The translations under genes and the position numbers were made by a program. Below are positions 1 through 63,270 of a stretch of 64,000 nt of DNA, piece by piece. Numbering within the stretch: position 1 is the stretch's first letter; every line of letters starts with the position of its first letter. The DNA comes from Coriobacteriia bacterium. Lineage in GTDB: Bacteria; Actinomycetota; Coriobacteriia; Anaerosomatales; PHET01. The notes below the pieces were generated by a model. That model was not told the origin of the DNA, made no database searches, and worked only from the letters and a program-made list of their open reading frames with translations. The stretch is taken from positions 23,713 to 87,712 of the forward strand of contig DASRYH010000008.1 of the NCBI GenBank assembly GCA_035687245.1, in the 5' to 3' direction.

Positions 1-1136
1 TGGGCATCTGCGACCAGTCCGGCAACCTGATGAGCGGCGAGAACGCCATCAAGGCGATGGCTGTCCAGCGCGATCGCGGTAACGGTCTTGGCGGTGGCTT
101 CGCCGGCTACGGCATCTACCCCGAGTTCCCGGATCACTACTGCTTCCACATGATGTATCACGACCTGAAGGCGAAGGAGGAGGCCGAAGGCGTCTTCGAC
201 CGCTACTTCGTGGTCGACCTCGCCGAGCCGATGCCGACGCGCGCCGTCAAGGGCATCAGTGACGCCCCTCTCCTGTGGCGCTACTTCCTCCAGCCCGACC
301 CGCACAAGCTCGTCGAGTCTGAGATGACCGCCGACGACTTCATCGTGCACACGGTGATGCTCATCAACGCGAGTGTGGATGGTGCCTTCGTCGCCTCCAG
401 CGGCAAGAACATGGGCGCTTTCAAGGGAGTTGGCTTCCCCGAGGAGATCGGCCACTACTACCTCCTCGAGGAGTACGAAGGCCACACCTGGACCGGCCAC
501 AACCGCTTCCCGACCAACACGCCGGGCTGGTGGGGCGGTGCGCATCCGTTCACGCTGCTCGACTGGTCCATCGTGCACAACGGTGAGATCTCCAGCTACG
601 GCATCAACAGCCGCTATCTCGAGGCCTTCGGCTATAAGTGCACGCTCGGCACCGACACCGAGGTCGCGGCCTACCTGTTCGACCTGATGCTTCGCCGCCA
701 CAAGCTGCCGCTCGAGCTGGCCTGCAAGGCGCTCGCTTCGCCGCTGTGGAGCGAGATCGACCGCATGCCCGAAGAGCAGCAGGCCGTCATGCGCTCGCTG
801 CGCGCGGTCTACGGCCCGGGCATGCTCAACGGTCCGTTCGCCATCGTGCTCGGCTTCAACGGCGGCATGGTTGCTTTGAACGACCGCATCAAGCTGCGCC
901 CGCTCGTCGCCGCCACTCAGGGCTCGATCGTGATGGTCGCCTCCGAAGAGAGCGCGATGCGCGAGGTGCTCGACGCCCCCGATCGCGTGTGGGCGCCGAA
1001 GGCCGGCGAGCCCGTCATTGCTCGCGTCGAAACCTGCGAATGGCCCATCCACGGCGACCTGCACCTGCCGGCGCGTGAGATCTCGACGGCCGTTACCGGC
1101 GTCGAAATCGCCGAAGAGACTGTCGAGGTGAACTAG
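1..1136 (+). CDS. Class-II (Ntn) glutamine amidotransferase domain protein, glutamate-synthase domain-1 type (split archaeal-type GOGAT); 5' end outside window
   Basis: The reading frame is open to base 3 (GICDQSGNL precedes the first Met of the track ORF). GltS-GATase-like blocks are present: RGNGLGGGFAGYG, GHNRFPTNTPGWWGGAHPF, IVHNGEISSYG. It is followed directly by the FMN and GXGXG domain genes. Confidence 0.7.
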   Translation, partial: GICDQSGNLMSGENAIKAMAVQRDRGNGLGGGFAGYGIYPEFPDHYCFHMMYHDLKAKEEAEGVFDRYFVVDLAEPMPTRAVKGISDAPLLWRYFLQPDPHKLVESEMTADDFIVHTVMLINASVDGAFVASSGKNMGAFKGVGFPEEIGHYYLLEEYEGHTWTGHNRFPTNTPGWWGGAHPFTLLDWSIVHNGEISSYGINSRYLEAFGYKCTLGTDTEVAAYLFDLMLRRHKLPLELACKALASPLWSEIDRMPEEQQAVMRSLRAVYGPGMLNGPFAIVLGFNGGMVALNDRIKLRPLVAATQGSIVMVASEESAMREVLDAPDRVWAPKAGEPVIARVETCEWPIHGDLHLPAREISTAVTGVEIAEETVEVN

Positions 1137-2665: not shown

Positions 2666-3484
2666 ATGACCACCAAGACCAACGCAGGCCCCATCGAGGG
2701 CTACGTGCAGGTCGTTCCGGCGATCGAGCGCGATGGCGACGTCGCGACTATCGAGTGCAAGGGCGTCTACTATAAGCAGGTCAATGAAGCCGTTCGCGGT
2801 GCGTTTGCCGACGGCGTGAAGACCGTGAAGCTCATGAACGTCAACGGCCAGCGCTACATCGGTACCGGCATCAAGGGCAAGGACCTGCGCATCGAGGTTT
2901 ACGGCACGCCGGGTCAGGATCTCGCCATGCTGATGGACGGTCCGACCGTCGAGATCTTCGGCAACGCGCAGGACGGTGTAGGCAACACGATGAACGCCGG
3001 CAACGTCATCGTTCACGGTGACGCCGGCGACGTGCTTGGCTACGGCATGCGTGGCGGCCGCGTCTTCATCAAGGGCGATGTGGGTTACCGCGTGGGCATC
3101 CACATGAAGGCCTACGAGGACCTGCGCCCGATCATGATCTGCGGCGGGCGTGCTCGTGACTTCTTCGGCGAGTATATGGCCGGTGGCCTGCTCGTGCTGC
3201 TGGGCATGAACTCGCGTCTCGAGGGCCCGCTCGTGGGCGGCTACCTCGGCACCGGAATGCACGGCGGCGAGATCTACCTGCGCGGTGAGGTCGAGCCGTG
3301 GCAGATCGGCAAGGAGTGCGGCATCTTCACCGCTTCCGAGGATGACATCGCCTCGATCAAGCCGATTCTCGCCGACTACTGCGAGGCTTTCGGCATGGAC
3401 CTCGACGAGGTGCTCTCCGTGCCGTTCACGCGCCTCGTGCCGATCAGCCACCGCCCCTACGGCAAGCTCTACACATACCTGTAG
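2666..3484 (+). CDS. GXGXG-motif beta-helix protein (glutamate synthase domain 3 / FwdC-like)
   Basis: Repeated G-x-G turns (VYGTPGQDLAMLMDG, IFGNAQDGVGNTMNAG, VHGDAGDVLGYGMRGG, IKGDVGYRVG) typical of the GltS C-terminal domain. SD-like ggggagg lies upstream. Confidence 0.75.
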   Translation: MTTKTNAGPIEGYVQVVPAIERDGDVATIECKGVYYKQVNEAVRGAFADGVKTVKLMNVNGQRYIGTGIKGKDLRIEVYGTPGQDLAMLMDGPTVEIFGNAQDGVGNTMNAGNVIVHGDAGDVLGYGMRGGRVFIKGDVGYRVGIHMKAYEDLRPIMICGGRARDFFGEYMAGGLLVLLGMNSRLEGPLVGGYLGTGMHGGEIYLRGEVEPWQIGKECGIFTASEDDIASIKPILADYCEAFGMDLDEVLSVPFTRLVPISHRPYGKLYTYL

Positions 3485-17592: not shown

Positions 17593-17988
17593 ATGAACAT
17601 CTGCTCAGATACTCAGTATCCTGAGAAGGACGAAGTCTGCGCCGTCGATGTGGTAGATGCCGACGCGGTCTCGCGCGTAGCTGCTGCCATCGCACCTCAA
17701 CCGCTCGTCGAGCGAACGGCTGCGTTGTTCGCCGCGCTCGCGGACCCGACGCGCTTTCGCATTCTCGATGCACTATCGCGAGAAGAGCTCTGCGTCTGCG
17801 ACCTCGCGGCGATCGCCCGTATCAGCCAGTCGGGCGTCAGCCACCAGCTGCGGCTTCTGCGCGACCGCGGGCTCGTGACCTACCGGCGCGACGGCAACCG
17901 CGCGGTCTACCGGCTCTCCGACGAGCACGTGCGCGACCTCATCCGCATCGGTGTCGAGCACGCCTCTGAGGGTGCTGTCGATGTCTGA
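17593..17988 (+). CDS. ArsR/SmtB-family metalloregulator, CadC/CmtR-like
   Basis: ELCVCDLAAIARISQSGVSHQLRLLRDRGLV HTH with the CVC metal site. N-terminal Cys4/Cys16 are present if ATG 17593 is used; GTG 17650 is an alternative start. The stop overlaps the ATPase start (ATGTCTGA). Confidence 0.8.
   Translation: MNICSDTQYPEKDEVCAVDVVDADAVSRVAAAIAPQPLVERTAALFAALADPTRFRILDALSREELCVCDLAAIARISQSGVSHQLRLLRDRGLVTYRRDGNRAVYRLSDEHVRDLIRIGVEHASEGAVDV
17604..17625. promoter_or_regulatory. Palindrome CTCA-GATACT-C-AGTATC-(C)TGAG, candidate ArsR/CadC operator
   Basis: Perfect 6-1-6 core GATACTCAGTATC at 17608-17620 with extended arms. It lies just after ATG 17593 and upstream of alternative start GTG 17650. 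Confidence 0.4.
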
Positions 17989-20365
17989 CTCGGTTCGCGA
18001 GACAGCAGTGTTCGAACTGCCGAAGGAGCGCTCCACGTCGCTCAGGTGTACCGCATGCGCTGATCGTGCATGTGAGTCGGTGGGGCGCGTTCCGGGTGTG
18101 GTACGCGTGGAGTGCGACAGTGCGCACTCGCAGGTGCGTGTCGAGTTCAACACCCTGAAGACCACCGCAGCCGACATCGAACGGCAGCTGTCCCACTCTG
18201 AACTCGAGTTCGAGCAGGCCATCGCGCACAAGGCGTGGCGTGTGAGCGGACTTGATTGACCGGACTGTGCGCGCACCGTGGGTGCGTCAGTCTCCCGAAT
18301 CGCAGGAGTGGTAGCTGCCGACCTCAACTTCGCCAGCGCGACCCTGCTCATCGAATACGACTCATCAGCTGACCCGACGGCCGAGGTAGAGCGTGTCGTT
18401 GCCGCCTCGGGCCATGGCATCCAATCGCTCGAGCAGGCAGCTGCCGGCGAAGCTCCGCCTGAACGCAGCTGGCTGGACAGCAACCTCGCAGAAGTTGCGA
18501 CCGCCGGCTCCGGCGCCTTCATCGCGCTGGCGTGGATCGCCGGCCTTCTGGGCGCCGCCGGGCTTGTGACCAACGCGCTCATGGCCGTCGCGATCGTCTT
18601 CGGCGGCCTGCTCGTGTGGAGGCGTGCGCTGGTCTCGCTTCGCGCACGCATGCTCGACATGAACGTGCTCATGACTATCGCCGTATTCGGCGCCGTCGCG
18701 CTTGGCGACTGGGGCGAGGCCGCCGCCGTCTACTTCCTCTACGCCTTCGGCGGCCTGCTCGAATCTCGTACGCTTGAGCGCACCCGGCGCTCGATTCGCG
18801 ATCTCATGGATCTCACGCCGCCTGCCGCGCGCGTGCGTCGGGGCGGCGATCTGGTGGAGATCCCCGCTGCCGAAGTGGTGCCGGGTGACACGATCGTCGT
18901 GCGGCCCGGCGAGCGCATCGCTCTCGACGGAGTGGTTCACTTGGGATCGTCGGCGATCGATGAGTCGCCCATCACCGGCGAGTCGGTCCCGGTCGACCGC
19001 ACCCTCGGAGACCGTGTCTATGCAGGCACGCTCAACACCACGGGCCTGCTCGAGGTGACCGTCACCACCACATCCACCGATTCGACGCTCGCGCGCATCG
19101 TCTACATGGTCGAAGAGGCGCAAGCTGCCAAGGCCCCGAGCCAGACCCTCGTGGACCGCTTCAGCCGCTACTACACCCCCATCGTGATCTGGGGTGCAGT
19201 GGCCGTCGCGGTGGTGCCGCCGGTTCTGGGCTTCGCCCTCGGCGCCGACTGGGGCTCGTGGACCGAGTGGATCAAGCGCGCGCTGGTCATGCTGGTAGTG
19301 AGCTGTCCGTGCGCACTTGTCATCTCGACCCCTGTATCGATTGTGAGTGGCATCGCCCGCGCAACGCGCGACGGAGTACTCGTCAAAGGTGGTGCCTTCA
19401 TCGAAGCCGCAGCTCGAGTGCGCGCGATGGCCTTCGACAAGACCGGAACCCTCACCTCGGGCCGTCCTGCCGTGACCAGCGTCGTCGCTTTCGGCGAGGC
19501 GAGCTCGGCCGAGGTGCTGCGGCAAGCGGCTGCGCTTGAGGCGCACTCGAACCACCCGCTCGCGCGCGCCGTCGTACGTGCTGCCGAGGGCTCTGGCGAT
19601 GCACTCGCGGCTGCCAGCGACATCAGCGAGACTCCGGGCGTCGGTGTGAGTGGGACCGTCGACGGGAGGCGCGTAGAGGTGAGCAGCCCCTCGGCGGCGG
19701 AGTCCCTGGGCGCACTCAACGCGCACGCCGAGGCGGCCGTTCGGAAGGCCGAAGACGTCGGGCAGAGCGCGCTGGTCGTGAGCGCTGATGGCCGGGCAAT
19801 AGGCGTGATCGCCGTCGCCGACCAGCTGCGTCCCGAGACGCCAAAGACGCTGCAGCGTCTGCGCGCGCTCGGTATAGAGCACCTTGTCATGCTGACCGGA
19901 GACAACCACCGCGTGGGCGAGGCGGTTGCTGCCCAGGCAGGCATCACGAGCGTGAAGGCGCGGCTGATGCCCAAGGCCAAGACCGACGCCGTGGGTGAGC
20001 TGCGCGAGCGCTACGGCACCGTGGCGATGGTTGGCGATGGCGTGAACGATGCGCCGGCCCTCGCCGCTGCCGACGTGGGTATCGCGATGGGCGCGGCGGG
20101 CTCCGACACCGCGCTCGAGACCGCCGACGTCGCGCTCATGCGCGACGACCTTTCGGCGCTTCCGGGCTTTCTCGCACTCGCGCGGCGCACCGTCAACACC
20201 GTGAAGGCCAACGTCGCTTTCTCGATCGCGGTGAAGGTCGTCTTCCTTGTGCTCGCGCTCACCGGCAAGGCGACGCTCTGGATGGCGGTATTCGCCGACA
20301 CCGGCGTCGCGCTGATCGTGATACTCAACGGGATGAGGCTGCTGGCCGCGCCCCGTGCGCGCTGA
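17981..20365 (+). CDS. Heavy-metal (Cd/Zn/Pb-type, P1B-2) translocating P-type ATPase interrupted by a single in-frame TGA at 18257-18259 (candidate Sec codon or nonsense mutation)
   Basis: Two HMA-like domains (RCTACADRACESV; SGLD-TGA-PDCARTV). [27 protein letters not shown]-terminal FADTGVALIVILNGMRLL. Track ORFs 17951..18259 and 18278..20365 share one frame. Confidence 0.65.
18263..18292 (+). promoter_or_regulatory. Hairpin immediately 3' of the in-frame UGA (candidate bacterial SECIS)
   Basis: GACUG/CAGUC lower stem, bulged U18268, GCGCGC/GUGCGU upper stem, loop ACCGUGG. Confidence 0.35.
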
Positions 20366-20385: not shown

Positions 20386-21210
20386 CTAGTTGCGGCCCTC
20401 GTGCTGTTCATCGGCGAGCGCGGCGTTGAGTGAGCCGGTGCGGTAGCCCTCCAAGTCAAGCGACGCCCACACGAAGCCGGCACCCTTGAGCGCCTCAGTG
20501 ATCGAACCGCGCTTGTCCCACGCCGCGTCGAGTTCGGAGCCGTCGACTTCGAGGCGCGCCACGTCGCCGTGCGCGCGGACTCTGAACTGCCGAAGGCCCA
20601 GGTCGCGCAGGGCGACTTCGGCGTTCGAGATCCTGGCAAGGGCGCCGGGAGTGATCTGTTCGCCGTACGGCAGTCGGGAAGCCAGGCATGCCATCGACGG
20701 CTTGTCCCAGTTCGGCAGGCCCAGTTCGCGTGCAAGGTCACGGATATCTTGCTTGGTCATGCCGACTTCCTGCAGCGGGCTCACGACGCCGCACTCAGCA
20801 GCGGCGCGGGCACCGGGGCGATGGTCGGAGCGGTCGTCGGCGTTACTGCCGTCGGCTACGTTGGCGAGCCCCTTCGATTCGGCGACTCCTTTGAGCAGCG
20901 AGAACAGCTCGGACTTGCAGTGGTAGCAGCGGTCGGTGGGGTTGGAGGTGAAGCTCGGGTTCGAGAGCTCCTCGGTGTCGATCTCGAGCAGGTCAAGGCC
21001 AAGCTGCGCTGCGAGGTCACGGGCGGCGTCGGTCTCTCCGGCGGGGTAGACCTCGGAGCTGGCCATGACGGCCTTGCAGCGGTCGCCCAGTACCGCGTGG
21101 GCGCAGAAGGCGAGCAAGGTCGAGTCCACGCCGCCCGAATAGGCGACGAGCAGGCTATCTAGTTCGCCCAGCCGGGCGATGAGGGCTTCGTACTTCTCTG
21201 AAGTGGTCAC
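20386..21210 (-). CDS. larE: PP-loop ATP pyrophosphatase, LarE-like sulfur transferase family
   Basis: VAYSGGVDSTLL PP-loop, DRCYHCK, and MACLASRLPYG (Cys in the LarE-type position). GTG start at 21210 with an AAAGGA SD; the longer track ORF adds an implausible N-terminus. Confidence 0.7.
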   Translation of the reverse strand: MTTSEKYEALIARLGELDSLLVAYSGGVDSTLLAFCAHAVLGDRCKAVMASSEVYPAGETDAARDLAAQLGLDLLEIDTEELSNPSFTSNPTDRCYHCKSELFSLLKGVAESKGLANVADGSNADDRSDHRPGARAAAECGVVSPLQEVGMTKQDIRDLARELGLPNWDKPSMACLASRLPYGEQITPGALARISNAEVALRDLGLRQFRVRAHGDVARLEVDGSELDAAWDKRGSITEALKGAGFVWASLDLEGYRTGSLNAALADEQHEGRN

Positions 21211-21307
21211 GCAGGTCCTTTCATCGGAGACCGCAGTATACGGCGGTACGGCTGGCTGGGCATACAAGAAGAGTCGCTGAGCGCAGGCCGTCACCGGGAG
21301 CTCACGG

Positions 21308-23269
21308 GTGGACCACGAATCGCACGAATCGCACGACATGCAGCACGCCGGGCACGGGACCGACTTCGCGAGGCGCTTCTGGATCTGTCTCGCGCTCACG
21401 GGGCCCGTGATCGCGATCTCGCCGATGCCGCTCGAGCTGCTGGGGTTGCCTCACATCGCTTTCGCCGGCGATCGGTGGGTTCTGCTGGCGCTTGCCACAG
21501 TGATCTTCGGATACGGTGGGGTGCCCTTCTTCGGCGGATTCGTGGCGGAGATGCGGCAACGACGGCCCGGTATGATGACGCTCGTGACCGTGGGAATCAC
21601 GACCGCCTACCTCTACAGTGCGGCAGTCGCGTGGGGACTGGCGGGCGAGCCCGTCTACTGGGAGCTCGCCACGCTCGTGGACATCATGCTTCTGGGCCAC
21701 TGGATCGAGATGCGCTCCACGATGGCCGCATCGGGCGCGCTTGAGTCGCTTGCACGGCTCGTGCCCGCCGAGGCGCACCTGCTCGCTGCCGACGGGGCCA
21801 TCACCGACGTCGCGTCGTCATCACTGCAGGTGGGACAGATCGTGCTCGTACGCGCCAGCGAGCGAATCCCAGCCGACGGTGTCGTCGCCCGCGGCACATC
21901 GACTGTCGATGAGTCGCTGCTCACCGGCGAGTCGACGCCTGTTGCCAAGGCCGCCGGCGATGCCGCCGTCGCCGGTTCGATGAACGGCAGCGGCGCGCTT
22001 GAGGTCGAGGTGCGCAGGGTGGGCGAGGACGCCTTTCTCGCCCAGGTCTCCCGCATCGTCGCTGAAGCGCAGGCGTCGAAGTCGCGGACTCAGCGGCTCG
22101 CCGACACCGCGGCCTTCGTGCTCACGCTCGTGGCGCTGGGATCGGGCATCCTGACCTTCGCGGCGTGGGCGCTACTCTCCGACAGACCGTTGGCGTTCGT
22201 CTTGGAGCGAACGGTATCGGTGATCGTGATCGCCTGCCCACACGCGCTCGGGCTCGCGATACCGCTTGTCGTCGCTGTCACGACCGCGCTTGGCGCGCGA
22301 TCGGGGCTGCTCGTGCGGGACCGCGCCGCTTTCGAGGCTGCCAGGCACGTCGGGGCCGTGATCTTCGACAAGACAGGGACGCTCACGGAAGGTCACTTCG
22401 GCATCGTTGAGACGGTGGCGATCGCGCCCGTGACGGAGGACGAAGTCGTCTCGCTTGCGGCAGCTGTCGAGCGCGGATCGGAGCACCCCATCGCTGGTGC
22501 GATCACCGCGGCGGCCACTGATGCGCTTGCCGCCGAGGAGTTCGAGGCGGTGCCCGGCCGCGGTGTACGCGGGCGCGTGGATGGACGTCAAGTTGAGGTT
22601 CAGAGCGCAGCTTCAGCCCACGAACGATTCGGCAGCTTGCCGGAGGCGGTACGGCGTCTTGCCAAGGGCGGACAGACTGTCGCGGTAGTGAGTGTGGACG
22701 GTGCAGTCGCAGGGGCGATTGCGGTGGGTGACAGGGTACGACCTGAGTCGGCAGATGCGGTGAGGCGGCTCAAGGCGCTCGGCGTGCGCAGCGTGATGCT
22801 CACGGGCGACAGCCGTGACGTAGCGGAGCGCGTTGCACGCGAGCTGGGCATCGACGAGGTTCACGCCGAGGTGCTCCCGGAGCGCAAAGCCGAAGTCGTT
22901 CGGCAGCTGCAGGCCGAGGGCTACGTCGTTGCGATGACCGGCGACGGAGTGAACGACGCGCCCGCGCTCGCGAGCGCTGATGTGGGCATCGCAATCGGCG
23001 CGGGGACCGACGTCGCGGTCGAGACCGCCGACGTGGTGCTGGTGCGAAGCGACCCGCGCGACGTGGTGGCCGTGATCGACCTATCGCGCCGAAGCTACCG
23101 AAAGATGCTCCAGAACCTCGCGTGGGCAGCCGGCTACAACGTTGTGGCACTGCCGCTCGCGGCAGGTGTGCTCGCTGGACAGGGAGTCCTGCTATCGCCA
23201 GCAGTGGGGGCCGCGCTGATGGCAGCCAGCACGGTGGTGGTGGCTATCAACGCACGGACACTCAGGTAG
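21308..23269 (+). CDS. copB: CopB-type (P1B-3, CPH motif) copper P-type ATPase with His-rich N-terminus
   Basis: [46 protein letters not shown]...MAAST. Confidence 0.85.
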
Positions 23270-61478: not shown

Positions 61479-61796
61479 ATGAGCAATGCAATCGATGTGA
61501 CCGCAGCGTCCTGGGCGACCGAAGTCGCCCAGTCCGACGTACCGGTTGTCGTGGACTTCTGGGCGCCGTGGTGTGGCCCCTGCCGAATGGTCGGTCCTGA
61601 GATCGACAAGCTCGCCGAACGCTTCGGCTCGGCGGTCAAGTTCGTCAAGGTGAACATCGACGAGAACCAGCAACTCGCAGTGAAGTACGGCGTCATGAGC
61701 ATCCCGACGATCGGGAAGTTCGTCGGCGGCGAGCTGGCAGCCTCCGTTGTCGGCGCTCGGGGCGCTGACGCGCTCGCTCGCGATCTCGCGCTCTAG
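61479..61796 (+). CDS. trxA: Thioredoxin
   Basis: VDFWAPWCGPCRMV active site; 105 aa. Confidence 0.9.
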   Translation: MSNAIDVTAASWATEVAQSDVPVVVDFWAPWCGPCRMVGPEIDKLAERFGSAVKFVKVNIDENQQLAVKYGVMSIPTIGKFVGGELAASVVGARGADALARDLAL

Positions 61797-61876
61797 CCAA
61801 CGCGTGTCGTGCTGGCGCGCGCGAAGGCGCAGTTGCGGGCGTGTGACCAGCACATTCGGCATCACTGAGAATCAGA

Positions 61877-61901
61877 GAGGGGCTCCCAATGGGAGCCCCT
61901 C
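61877..61901. terminator. Bidirectional hairpin terminator between trxA and csoR
   Basis: GAGGGGCTCCC, loop AAT, GGGAGCCCCTC: a perfect 11-bp stem between convergent genes. Confidence 0.7.
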
Positions 61902-61939
61902 GTCAGTGCAGTTGTCGCGCACACACACGGTCTATAGCG

Positions 61940-62242
61940 CTACTTCACGCAGGAGCTGTACTTCAAGAAGACCTTGATGGCTTCGTCGATGACTTCATCG
62001 CGGTCCATCGTGTCGTCGGTGATAAGGCAGTTCTTCATCGCGTGGCCGATGACGTGCAAACCGACCTGGTTCAGCGCCGACTTCGCCGCCATAACCTGCG
62101 TCAGAACCGCCTCGCACTCCTGGCCATTGTCGATCATGGTCTGCAGGCCACGAATCTGGCCCTCGAGACGCCGAAGCCTGTTGATGAGCTTCTTGCGCTC
62201 GTCATCGCTGTCGACGAATACAGGGGTCGTGTTCTCAGTCAT
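61940..62242 (-). CDS. csoR: CsoR/RcnR-family metal-sensing repressor
   Basis: LINRLRRLEGQIRGLQTMI, ECEAVLTQV, GHAMKNC. Cys43, His67 and Cys72 are candidate ligands. 100 aa. Confidence 0.85.
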   Translation of the reverse strand: MTENTTPVFVDSDDERKKLINRLRRLEGQIRGLQTMIDNGQECEAVLTQVMAAKSALNQVGLHVIGHAMKNCLITDDTMDRDEVIDEAIKVFLKYSSCVK

Positions 62243-62285
62243 GAGTCATCCATCAATCTGATAGGGTAGATGCGTCACGCGCAGT

Positions 62286-62302
62286 ATACCCCCTAGGGGT
62301 AT
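62286..62302. promoter_or_regulatory. CsoR-type operator ATACCCC-cta-GGGGTAT in the csoR/CDF divergent region
   Basis: 7-3-7 dyad that overlaps a TATTAT -10-like hexamer (62300-62305), 24 nt upstream of the CDF ATG. Confidence 0.6.
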
Positions 62303-62325
62303 TATCGACAACGGAGGGAGGGGAG

Positions 62326-63270
62326 ATGGGATACACGCGGCCGCAGGACGGCGAGGCGTCTGCCAATCGTGTCCACGAGATCCGCAAGATCCTGTGGGTC
62401 ATCCTCTTTCTCAACCTCGGGGTTGCGTTAGCCAAGCTAGTGTGGGGCCTCGTCACGAACTCTGCGGCCATGCAGGCCGACGGTTTTCACTCCCTGTTCG
62501 ACGGTACCAGCAACGTGGTCGGACTGGTGGGTATGGCGTTTGCCGGCCGTCCGGCCGATCGAGAGCACCCATACGGACACGCGAAGTACGAGACCTACGC
62601 TTCGGCGATTATCGCGGTGATGCTCGGTCTGGCGGCGTACCGCATCGGTTCGACCGCGGTCGGACACCTCGTGAACGGCGCGGAGCCCGCGCGAGTCGAT
62701 GCCATCTCATTCGTGGTCATGGTCGGCACGCTCGCGGTCAATCTCTTCATCACGACCTGGGAGCGCAGGGTAGGTCGCAGGCTCGGCAGCGAGATCCTCG
62801 TGGCCGATGCAAGCCACACCGGCTCCGACGTTCTGGTGAGTATCGGAGTCATCATCTCGCTCGTCCTCGTGAAGATGGGCTTCCAGCAGGCGGACCCGAT
62901 CGTCGCGCTCTTCGTGGCAGGGGCGATCGTCTACACCGCGTGGGGCGTCTTCAAGGCAGCCAATGCGACGCTTTTCGATGCTGCCCGGATCCCTGCCGAT
63001 GAGGTATGCGCGTTCGTCTGCGAGCAGGCCGGCGTATTGGGCGCGCACCACGTGCGCACTCGCGGGCCGGAAGGCGCTGTCTACGTTGACCTGCACATCC
63101 AAGTCGACGCCACGAGAACCGTCGCCGACGGGCATAACATCGCCGAAGCGGTGGAGCGCGCGATTCTCGAGCACTACCCGCACGTCGTCGATGCGATCGT
63201 CCATCTTGAGCCCTTCGATGACTACCAGGCCGACAAGACCGCCCGCGAGGTGGACGCCGGACTTGTCTGA
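62326..63270 (+). CDS. Cation diffusion facilitator (CDF) metal efflux transporter
   Basis: Six TM helices with HSLFDGTSN and DASHTGSDVLVS ligand motifs. C-terminal cytoplasmic domain (HHVRTRGPEGAVYVDLHIQVD). Confidence 0.85.
   Translation: MGYTRPQDGEASANRVHEIRKILWVILFLNLGVALAKLVWGLVTNSAAMQADGFHSLFDGTSNVVGLVGMAFAGRPADREHPYGHAKYETYASAIIAVMLGLAAYRIGSTAVGHLVNGAEPARVDAISFVVMVGTLAVNLFITTWERRVGRRLGSEILVADASHTGSDVLVSIGVIISLVLVKMGFQQADPIVALFVAGAIVYTAWGVFKAANATLFDAARIPADEVCAFVCEQAGVLGAHHVRTRGPEGAVYVDLHIQVDATRTVADGHNIAEAVERAILEHYPHVVDAIVHLEPFDDYQADKTAREVDAGLV

Follow-up and report, generated by a model that had tools for sequence, protein, structure and literature searches.

A Probable Selenocysteine-Containing ZntA/CadA-Type Metal ATPase Gene with a SECIS-Like Hairpin in a Coriobacteriia Bacterium

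Introduction

Heavy-metal P-type ATPases with selenocysteine (Sec) in a metal-binding motif are an established entry in selenoprotein catalogues. They are listed as UxxC selenoproteins under the protein model TIGR01525, with ABB15669.1 as the exemplar (PMC13188914). The family was already treated as known in a paper of 2007 (PMC1976440), and Peng et al. reported it in 2016 from 25 organisms and 32 genes (PMC5029168). Transporter selenoproteins of this sort are predictions, and their roles need investigation (PMC13188914). The subject of the present work is a candidate member encoded in a 64,000-nucleotide stretch of DNA from a Coriobacteriia bacterium, hereafter the window (assembly GCA_035687245.1, contig DASRYH010000008.1, positions 23,713 to 87,712 of the forward strand). 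A first-pass annotation of this DNA had proposed that an in-frame TGA in a metal ATPase gene encodes selenocysteine. It had also suggested that selenoproteome surveys list cation-transporting ATPases with Sec, which the three papers cited above bear out.

Other predicted selenoproteins that handle metals include a putative mercuric transport protein with a C/SxxU motif, the SO_0444 Cu/Zn efflux family, and SaoB/SaoC (PMC13188914; Haft & Gwadz 2023). The pump described here resembles them in that Sec would be a probable metal ligand in metal resistance and not a redox catalyst. In contrast to these proteins, whose folds and motifs differ, the Sec of the window pump would lie in the cytosolic HMA regulatory domain of a P-type ATPase.

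How is a UGA codon marked for selenocysteine in bacteria? In the fdhF gene of Escherichia coli, the selenocysteine insertion sequence (SECIS) is a hairpin located inside the open reading frame (ORF), directly 3' of the UGA. It exposes an unpaired G-U at its apex, and the UGA is followed by C. This element and the zinc pump ZntA are the systems against which the locus is compared below; all coordinates are those of the window.

One Pump Gene Interrupted by a Single UGA

The TGA at 18257-18259 is the sole interruption between two ORFs in the same frame, 17951..18259 and 18278..20365. Translation through it gives ...HKAWRVSGLD-TGA-PDCARTVGASV..., bearing out the reading of the first-pass annotation; the GLD-TGA-PDC core spans 18248-18268. 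Sequence comparison indicates that this UGA is very probably decoded as selenocysteine in a ZntA/CadA-type pump encoded by one gene (17981..20365, + strand). The ATG at 17981 is likely to be the true start, and a GAGGG motif lies 9-13 nt upstream of it. From this ATG, 794 residues are encoded, for an expected full-length product of ~84 kDa, with the TGA as codon 93, and the gene ends at a TGA without SECIS context that acts as its true terminator (20363..20365, +). In the GenBank annotation the same region appears as two genes, a 92-aa HMA ORF and the 695-aa protein HET6350721.1. This split is a mis-annotation.

What kind of ATPase does the read-through frame encode? Pfam detects the E1-E2_ATPase and Hydrolase domains and reports HMA in two stretches, with residues 87-142 matching profile positions 3-58 at 55.6 bits (cutoff 24.8). 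This match, together with alignments to the structures 1P6T, 1MWY, and 4UMV, defines HMA domain 2 (residues 85-147; 18233..18421, +), which is the domain broken by the TGA. The second Pfam stretch and a TIGR00003 match over residues 20-69 mark an N-terminal HMA-like domain 1 (residues ~20-69; 18038..18187, +) with a C23-x-x-C26 motif. The heavy-metal P1B ATPase model TIGR01525 scores 598.2 bits against a cutoff of 346.25, and TIGR01512 scores 510 bits against 313.5. On the ZntA-specific NCBIfam models the protein scores too low (NF033775, 517 against a cutoff of 1240; NF008262, 602 against 1005). Because the protein stays under the ZntA-specific cutoffs and passes only the subfamily models TIGR01512 and TIGR01525, it is classified from its sequence as a ZntA/CadA-like subfamily relative and not as a ZntA equivalog.

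In alignments to proteins in the Protein Data Bank (PDB), residue 93 falls on the first Cys of the GMxCxxC motif in ATP7B, Bacillus subtilis CopA, and ZntA. The first-pass annotation had placed the TGA at the first metal-ligand Cys of the second HMA domain, and these alignments and the Pfam HMA score agree. The alignment to ZntA (Shigella sonnei and E. coli; PDB 4UMV, N-terminal domain 1MWY) runs end to end and with the Shigella structure covers residues 83-789 (E = 9e-127). It sets Asp92-Sec93-Pro-Asp-Cys96 against Asp58-Cys59-Ala-Ala-Cys62. Asp92, the equivalent of the metal ligand Asp58, is encoded by a GAT (18254..18256, +) that supplies a conserved U directly 5' of the UGA. The UGA itself (codon 93, inferred Sec; 18257..18259, +) corresponds to Cys59, the first ligand of D-C-x-x-C. 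The TGT codon for Cys96 (18266..18268, +) provides the second ligand of UxxC and corresponds to Cys62.

The transmembrane signature of P1B-2 (Zn/Cd/Pb-type) ATPases consists of CPC together with a conserved Lys and Asp (DxG). All of these are found in the alignment to 4UMV. The CPC metal-site motif (residues 442-444; 19304..19312, +) aligns with the CPC of ZntA; Lys752 (20234..20236, +) and Asp773 of ADTG (20297..20299, +) align with its conserved transmembrane Lys and Asp, presumably K693 and D714. The core P-type motifs are also present, namely TGES (residues 332-335), the DKTGT phosphorylation motif (residues 486-490; 19436..19450, +), and GDGxNDAP (residues 685-692). On the translation, the two subfamily models, and the 4UMV alignment, the pump is predicted to be a Zn/Cd/Pb-type transporter. 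It has in common with ZntA the GxDCxxC-type N-terminal site including the Asp, the CPC motif, the transmembrane Lys and Asp, and the DKTGT, TGES, and GDGxNDAP motifs. Unlike ZntA, it would have Sec in place of Cys59, and it carries an extra degenerate HMA-like domain upstream.

Conservation of the UGA Codon

The best 120 homologues in a protein search share 51-69% identity with the pump. About 56 of these 120 are full length and read GLDCPDC. Another ~63 are ~690 aa long, have no called HMA domain, and start a few residues past the CxxC position because gene callers shortened them; their starts vary (MGASV..., MSASV..., VAKSV...). The DNA of six shortened homologues, picked by protein similarity only (P0028, P0034, P0082, P0005, P0076, and P0009), was compared with that of the window. 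All seven loci have GAT-TGA-CCN-GAY-TGY at the identical codon, at 60-67% identity, and read ...[W/Y]R[V/I/L]xGLD-TGA-PDCAR[T/A]V..., with the protein conserved on both sides of the TGA.

A wider view comes from a scan of 185,579 genomes, one per species, with the pattern GGNYTNGAYTGACCNGAYTGYGC. It returned 90 loci, of which 72 are ATPase loci with HMA strand 1 in-frame before the TGA. The other 18 (Proteobacteria, Bacteroidota, and others) are without coding context and represent chance background. Fifty loci are long enough for the frame past the TGA to be followed, and in 47 of these it runs on for 640-800 codons without a stop. The carriers of the Sec form are almost all labelled as Coriobacteriia or Actinomycetota metagenome-assembled genomes (MAGs). 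The complete chromosomes OW818687.1, OY969691.1, and OY968780.1 have the TGA form, and GCA_964492775.1 is an example of a genome with the Cys form.

Orthologues have only TGA or Cys codons at column 93, as the first-pass annotation had asked to be checked. For example, the DNA of two Cys-form relatives, P0001 and P0010, has TGT at the TGA column.

A SECIS-Like Hairpin Downstream of the UGA

Counting the U of the UGA as position 1, a SECIS-like hairpin lies directly downstream of the codon (18262..18293, +). It is delineated by a minimum free energy (MFE) fold, pair counts, RNAalifold, and the comparison of Sec and Cys forms. The lower stem pairs 18262-18267 with 18288-18293, a 5' bulge UGC occupies 18268-18270, the upper stem pairs 18271-18277 with 18281-18287, and the apical loop is GUG at 18278-18280. 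The MFE is -17.8 kcal/mol. A hairpin at this place had been drawn in the first-pass annotation: its existence is supported by the fold and by the comparative data below, and the G-U that it placed 22-23 nt after the U of the UGA is correct, with GUG at +22..24. The register as drawn does not hold, being off by 2 nt, and its single bulged U18268 gives way to the 3-nt bulge. The rejected register (13-18/26-31, loop ACCGUGG) pairs equally often because the GCGCGC run permits slippage. It shows no double changes, and in 11 of 25 relatives its positions 15 and 29 do not pair.

It is the comparative data, and not the window fold alone, that make the predicted hairpin significant. Among 71 distinct TGA-form sequences, two hairpin designs are found at the same place, both with G22-U23-G24 in the apical loop. 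Type A, which includes the window, has 25 members with the Arg codon CGC, pairs running from 15-31 to 21-25, and the loop GUG. Type B has 45 members with the Arg codon CGG, pairs from 15-35 to 20-30, and a 9-nt loop, CGUGGCNAA. In type A, 91.1% of cells are paired, compared with 27-44% when the 3' partners are slid, and covariation is higher than in any of 500 shuffles. Thirteen sequences have A-U at pair 19-27 and 11 have G-C, and pair 15-31 is seen as G-U, A-U, C-G, and U-A. In type B, 93.3% of cells are paired compared with 26-39% when slid. The Arg codon ends, synonymously, in C in 25/25 type A and in G in 45/45 type B sequences, and this third base matches its partner in 70/70. RNAalifold independently predicts the same stems for both types.

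Do sequences that encode Cys at this position keep the hairpin? As a control, 35 distinct Cys-form sequences with the same peptide, GLD-C-PDCAR, were taken from a metagenome scan. The complete 6-bp stem is present in 67 of the 71 Sec forms and in none of the 35 Cys forms (p = 6e-24), and GUG at +22..24 in 66/71 compared with 7/35 (p = 3e-14). The TGA orthologues thus keep the hairpin with compensatory changes and the Cys orthologues are without it, which is the outcome that the covariation check of the first-pass annotation looked for. The codon at -1 is GAT in 70/71 Sec forms and in 17/35 Cys forms (p = 7e-10). Both the U at -1 and the C at +4 may contribute to the context for recoding. The Asp codon two positions after the Sec-UGA, unlike the GAT at -1, is mostly GAC.

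Published criteria for bacterial SECIS elements (bSECIS) are a loop of 3-9 nt with an upper stem of 4-16 bp, a G at the start of the loop, a spacing of 16-37 nt between UGA and loop, and an MFE <= -7.5 kcal/mol (PMC13188914 Fig. 2). The window hairpin falls within all four, an agreement in line with the SECIS prediction that the first-pass annotation had called for. Its loop is GUG of 3 nt (or CGUGG of 5 nt in the RNAalifold consensus), its upper stem 6-7 bp, and its spacing 17-18 nt, with G at the first or second loop position; C21-G22-U23-G24-G25 fits the bSECIS loop pattern exactly. In type B, the loop measures 9 nt and the stem 6 bp. Applied to single-sequence MFE folds, the criteria are loose: they are passed by 43/71 Sec forms and also by 4/35 Cys forms. 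Only 43 Sec forms pass because alternative folds compete in the 60-nt windows. The fixed-position stem test (67/71 compared with 0/35) discriminates better. A permissive Rfam scan of 18200-18360 returned only a chance HIV-1_SL4 match (E = 0.84), and no curated SECIS model applies.

The resemblance to the fdhF SECIS is one of geometry. Both hairpins lie inside the ORF directly 3' of a UGA that is followed by C, and both have bases left unpaired on the 5' arm of the upper stem and an apical unpaired G-U, in the window ~22-24 nt from the U of the UGA. In contrast, there is no sequence similarity between them. The bulge is 3 nt long (UGC) where fdhF has a single U, and type A loops read GUG (or CGUGG), type B loops the 9-nt CGUGGCNAA. 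By analogy, the window hairpin is predicted to be a Sec-directing element bound by SelB.

Weighing the Evidence

Several points count against a selenocysteine at position 93. The window fold barely beats dinucleotide shuffles (z = -1.79; 10/200 shuffles equal it), and since a single-sequence fold is so marginal, the comparative tests were used in its place. Within type B, the stem is nearly invariant, so that it is conserved without covariation inside the type (45 members). The genome-scan pattern forces P-D-C-A after the TGA, which makes codon conservation circular in that set, and only the seven homology-derived loci were therefore counted for the conservation of those codons. As far as can be judged from a review, no member of the family has been experimentally shown to contain selenium (PMC13188914).

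Because the Cys control set spans a wider phylogenetic range than the Sec set, the two nearest same-locus Cys forms were examined as well. P0001, which is syntenic, has GAC-TGT and no hairpin, with 3/7 and 4/6 pairs. P0010 (L135/L136), also syntenic, encodes the Cys at its residue 26 with GAT-TGT and retains 5 bp of the type A stem (CGCAC/GUGCG) as a relic. It seems to have changed from Sec to Cys recently, with its SECIS in decay.

Also on the negative side, searches for the Sec machinery gave no matches. They covered the window, an 8-kb one-sided extension of it (via L137), and ~8 kb per relative, which is <3% of each genome. ARAGORN and Rfam found no tRNA-Sec in the 64-kb window, where the Rfam gathering scan reported only a tRNA-Leu; ARAGORN found five tRNAs, none of them tRNA-Sec, in 1.04 Mb of related-locus DNA. 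A tblastn search with E. coli SelA, SelB, and SelD had no match in all related-locus DNA, and the 8-kb extension contains no selA, selB, selD, or tRNA-Sec. Because so little of each genome was covered, these negatives are uninformative and are no evidence of absence. Every test proposed in the first-pass annotation that was run came out in favour of selenocysteine.

Could the TGA be a real stop between two genes? There would then be a 92-residue HMA-like protein ending in GLD, followed by an N-truncated pump restarted at GTG 18278. This is how gene callers treat the window and ~63 homologues, and the GTG at +22..24, in principle a possible restart codon, is kept in 66/71 Sec forms. However, the callers pick many different starts across the homologues, and some members have GTA, GTC, GTT, or TTG in place of the GTG, the GTA of L140 being a non-start. 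The GTG is also part of the apical loop of the hairpin, which the Cys forms do not have. Splitting the gene would cut one HMA fold, parting strand 1 and the metal loop from the rest, whereas each Cys-form orthologue is one gene. Between TGA and GTG lie 18 nt that have no Shine-Dalgarno motif, keep the frame in every case, and code for PDCAR in the seven unbiased loci. True termination at this codon is very unlikely.

It is slightly easier to imagine, and still improbable, that UGA93 is read through as another amino acid, for example by near-cognate tRNA-Trp or tRNA-Cys or by some other recoding stimulated by the hairpin. UGA-C is a leaky termination context, and no Sec machinery was found in the DNA fragments searched. 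However, codon 93 corresponds to a metal-ligand Cys, and Trp or Gly in its place would destroy the site. Orthologues alternate between TGA and Cys only, which is the classic Sec/Cys signature. The hairpin fits SelB-type bSECIS geometry, with the loop GU at an fdhF-like distance (PMC13188914), and the family has been listed among the selenoproteins of Sec-decoding bacteria (PMC5029168). A sequencing or assembly error, or a recent nonsense mutation producing a pseudogene, has a negligible probability. A single TGY-to-TGA change would suffice for it, and the sole identical second copy, in the Logan assembly SRR7629281 (L001), is not clearly independent and may derive from the same or sister samples. 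Nevertheless, the same TGA occurs in 72 other species-level genomes and in 7/7 homology-derived loci, with intact downstream ORFs and a conserved protein, and the hairpin specific to TGA forms co-occurs with it. On these comparative sequence data the error or pseudogene explanation is effectively refuted. Decoding of UGA93 as selenocysteine is the reading followed below.

A global reassignment of UGA was also considered and is ruled out because TGA terminates arsR, the pump itself, and ~15 other likely genes of the window. The first-pass annotation had made the same point, that TGA is a normal stop for neighbouring genes.

Gene Arrangement and a Proposed Mechanism

Directly upstream of the pump lies a gene for an ArsR/SmtB-family metalloregulator (17593..17988, +; Pfam HTH_5, 63.6 bits; NCBIfam NF033788, 104 bits against a cutoff of 55). 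The start ATG of the pump overlaps its stop by 8 nt (17981-17988, ATGTCTGA), and the order arsR-then-ATPase is also found in loci L003, L006, L134, L138, and L140. Because the arsR stop and the pump start overlap, translational coupling of regulator and pump is suggested. Only 270 nt before the Sec-UGA, the TGA of arsR is thus read as termination.

The pump would be co-transcribed with the metalloregulator, presumably its repressor; the overlap and the conserved synteny are observed, and the regulatory step draws on knowledge of the protein family. In the transcript, the hairpin 5-37 nt past UGA93 exposes G22-U23 in the apical loop. On the model of E. coli fdhF, a complex of SelB, GTP, and Sec-tRNASec would bind this loop, outcompete RF2, and insert Sec. 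More speculatively, the invariant U before the UGA and the C after it might tune the competition between Sec insertion and RF2.

The product would have an N-terminal HMA metal site, Asp92-Sec93-x-x-Cys96, followed by the transmembrane CPC/Lys/Asp site, as aligned with ZntA. What could be gained by selenium at this position? A selenolate, softer than a thiolate and with a low pKa, might allow tighter binding or faster exchange of Cd, Pb, Hg, and Zn. Alternatively, the gain could be resistance to irreversible oxidation. In either case, Sec93 would alter the sensing or hand-off role of the N-terminal domain.

Relation to the Catalogued Family

Like the catalogued Sec ATPases, the window gene encodes a P1B ATPase matching TIGR01525, with Sec predicted at the first Cys of CxxC; Cys homologues exist, and the SECIS hairpin lies directly downstream within the coding region. 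Membership was judged by the TIGR01525 score and the UxxC, Cys, and SECIS features. By its sequence, which displays every feature of the family that could be tested, the gene is a new member of the catalogued Sec heavy-metal ATPase family. The picture of how Sec decoding works stays unchanged, and the protein family is one already catalogued.

The catalogue of 25 organisms and 32 genes contrasts with the at least 72 species of a Coriobacteriia-centred clade that have the Sec form here. The two hairpin designs and the invariant U at -1 are likewise seen here and are absent from the descriptions in the catalogue papers. A literature search on Sec use in Coriobacteriia or in OPB41/Anaerosomatales gave nothing useful. 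The extent of the Sec form in the clade, the two SECIS designs in one coding context, and the invariant U(-1) may be new.

How stable is the Sec form? In a rough neighbour-joining tree, type B is a separate clade and Cys forms of 860 aa fall outside both types. The tree is suggestive of interleaved Sec and Cys forms, with Cys groups inside the type A Sec clade. Because the two forms interleave in the family tree, the sequences suggest that residue 93 has switched between Sec and Cys several times.

A broader picture is offered tentatively, as a possibility that remains rather doubtful. In it, the Sec form would be the prevailing state of a housekeeping-locus ZntA/CadA-type pump within a clade of Coriobacteriia that has the rank of an order and is mostly uncultured. 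The pump would be found in at least 72 species, in synteny with uvrB and arsR, with two mutually exclusive SECIS architectures in the same 12 codons, an invariant U(-1), and repeated Sec/Cys switching that leaves relic hairpins. This lineage picture is absent from the selenoprotein papers cited, and large selenoproteome surveys may already contain it. If it is true, the clade would provide a natural matched-pair system for selenium as metal ligand versus redox catalyst in a transporter, and it would suggest a dependence of metal resistance on selenium supply in these anaerobes.

Other consequences concern databases and experiments. Public databases list the pump and dozens of its orthologues as two separate products, a small 'HMA protein' and an N-truncated 'P-type ATPase', and this distorts surveys of metal-resistance genes and selenoproteome counts. 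The Sec/Cys pairs and the two SECIS designs give a basis to probe the role of a selenolate in the handling of Cd, Zn, and Pb, and the occurrence of two designs in one coding context gives a basis to study how a SECIS co-evolves with the protein sequence that it overlaps.

Some carriers stand apart in their sequence or their label. The sole clear non-actinobacterial Sec form is L021, from the MAG Firmicutes bacterium HGW-Firmicutes-8 (3056-3078, - strand), which reads VTGLD-TGA-PDCAGKLVDKIKRLPGV. The DNA that follows is AT-rich and unrelated in sequence, and it has a different long hairpin with the apical loop AAA, without the usual G. An identical TGA-plus-66-nt core occurs in L050 (Actinobacteria bacterium UBA2184) and in L081 (Rhodocyclaceae bacterium UBA2250), two MAGs whose labels name different phyla. 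Some other carriers are labelled 'Eubacteriales', 'Aeromicrobium', or 'Firmicutes' despite having sequences of the Coriobacteriia type. The odd labels of L050, L081, and these other carriers are probably due to mis-binning or mislabelling of MAG contigs.

Genomic Surroundings

A scan of the window for other genes with an in-frame TGA, based on G+C content at third codon positions, returned antisense artefacts only. The likely genes of the window end in ~36 TAG, 17 TGA, and one TAA codon, a census that includes a few antisense false ORFs. The G+C content of the window is 65%, and the dominance of TAG is unusual for an actinobacterial genome with this composition, where TGA normally dominates.

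The surroundings of the pump are rich in metal-handling genes. Directly downstream is a gene for a LarE-type sacrificial sulfur transferase (20386-21399, -). It is followed by a second P1B ATPase gene, of the copper type (21308-23269, +; TIGR01511, 567 bits), whose product has a His-rich N-terminus and no HMA domain. Genes for a CsoR-like repressor, a thioredoxin, and a CDF (Cation_efflux) transporter lie ~42 kb from the pump (about 61500-63270). Just past the window, in the extension (L137), the gene for a 73-aa HMA protein adjoins that for a DsbD_TM protein.

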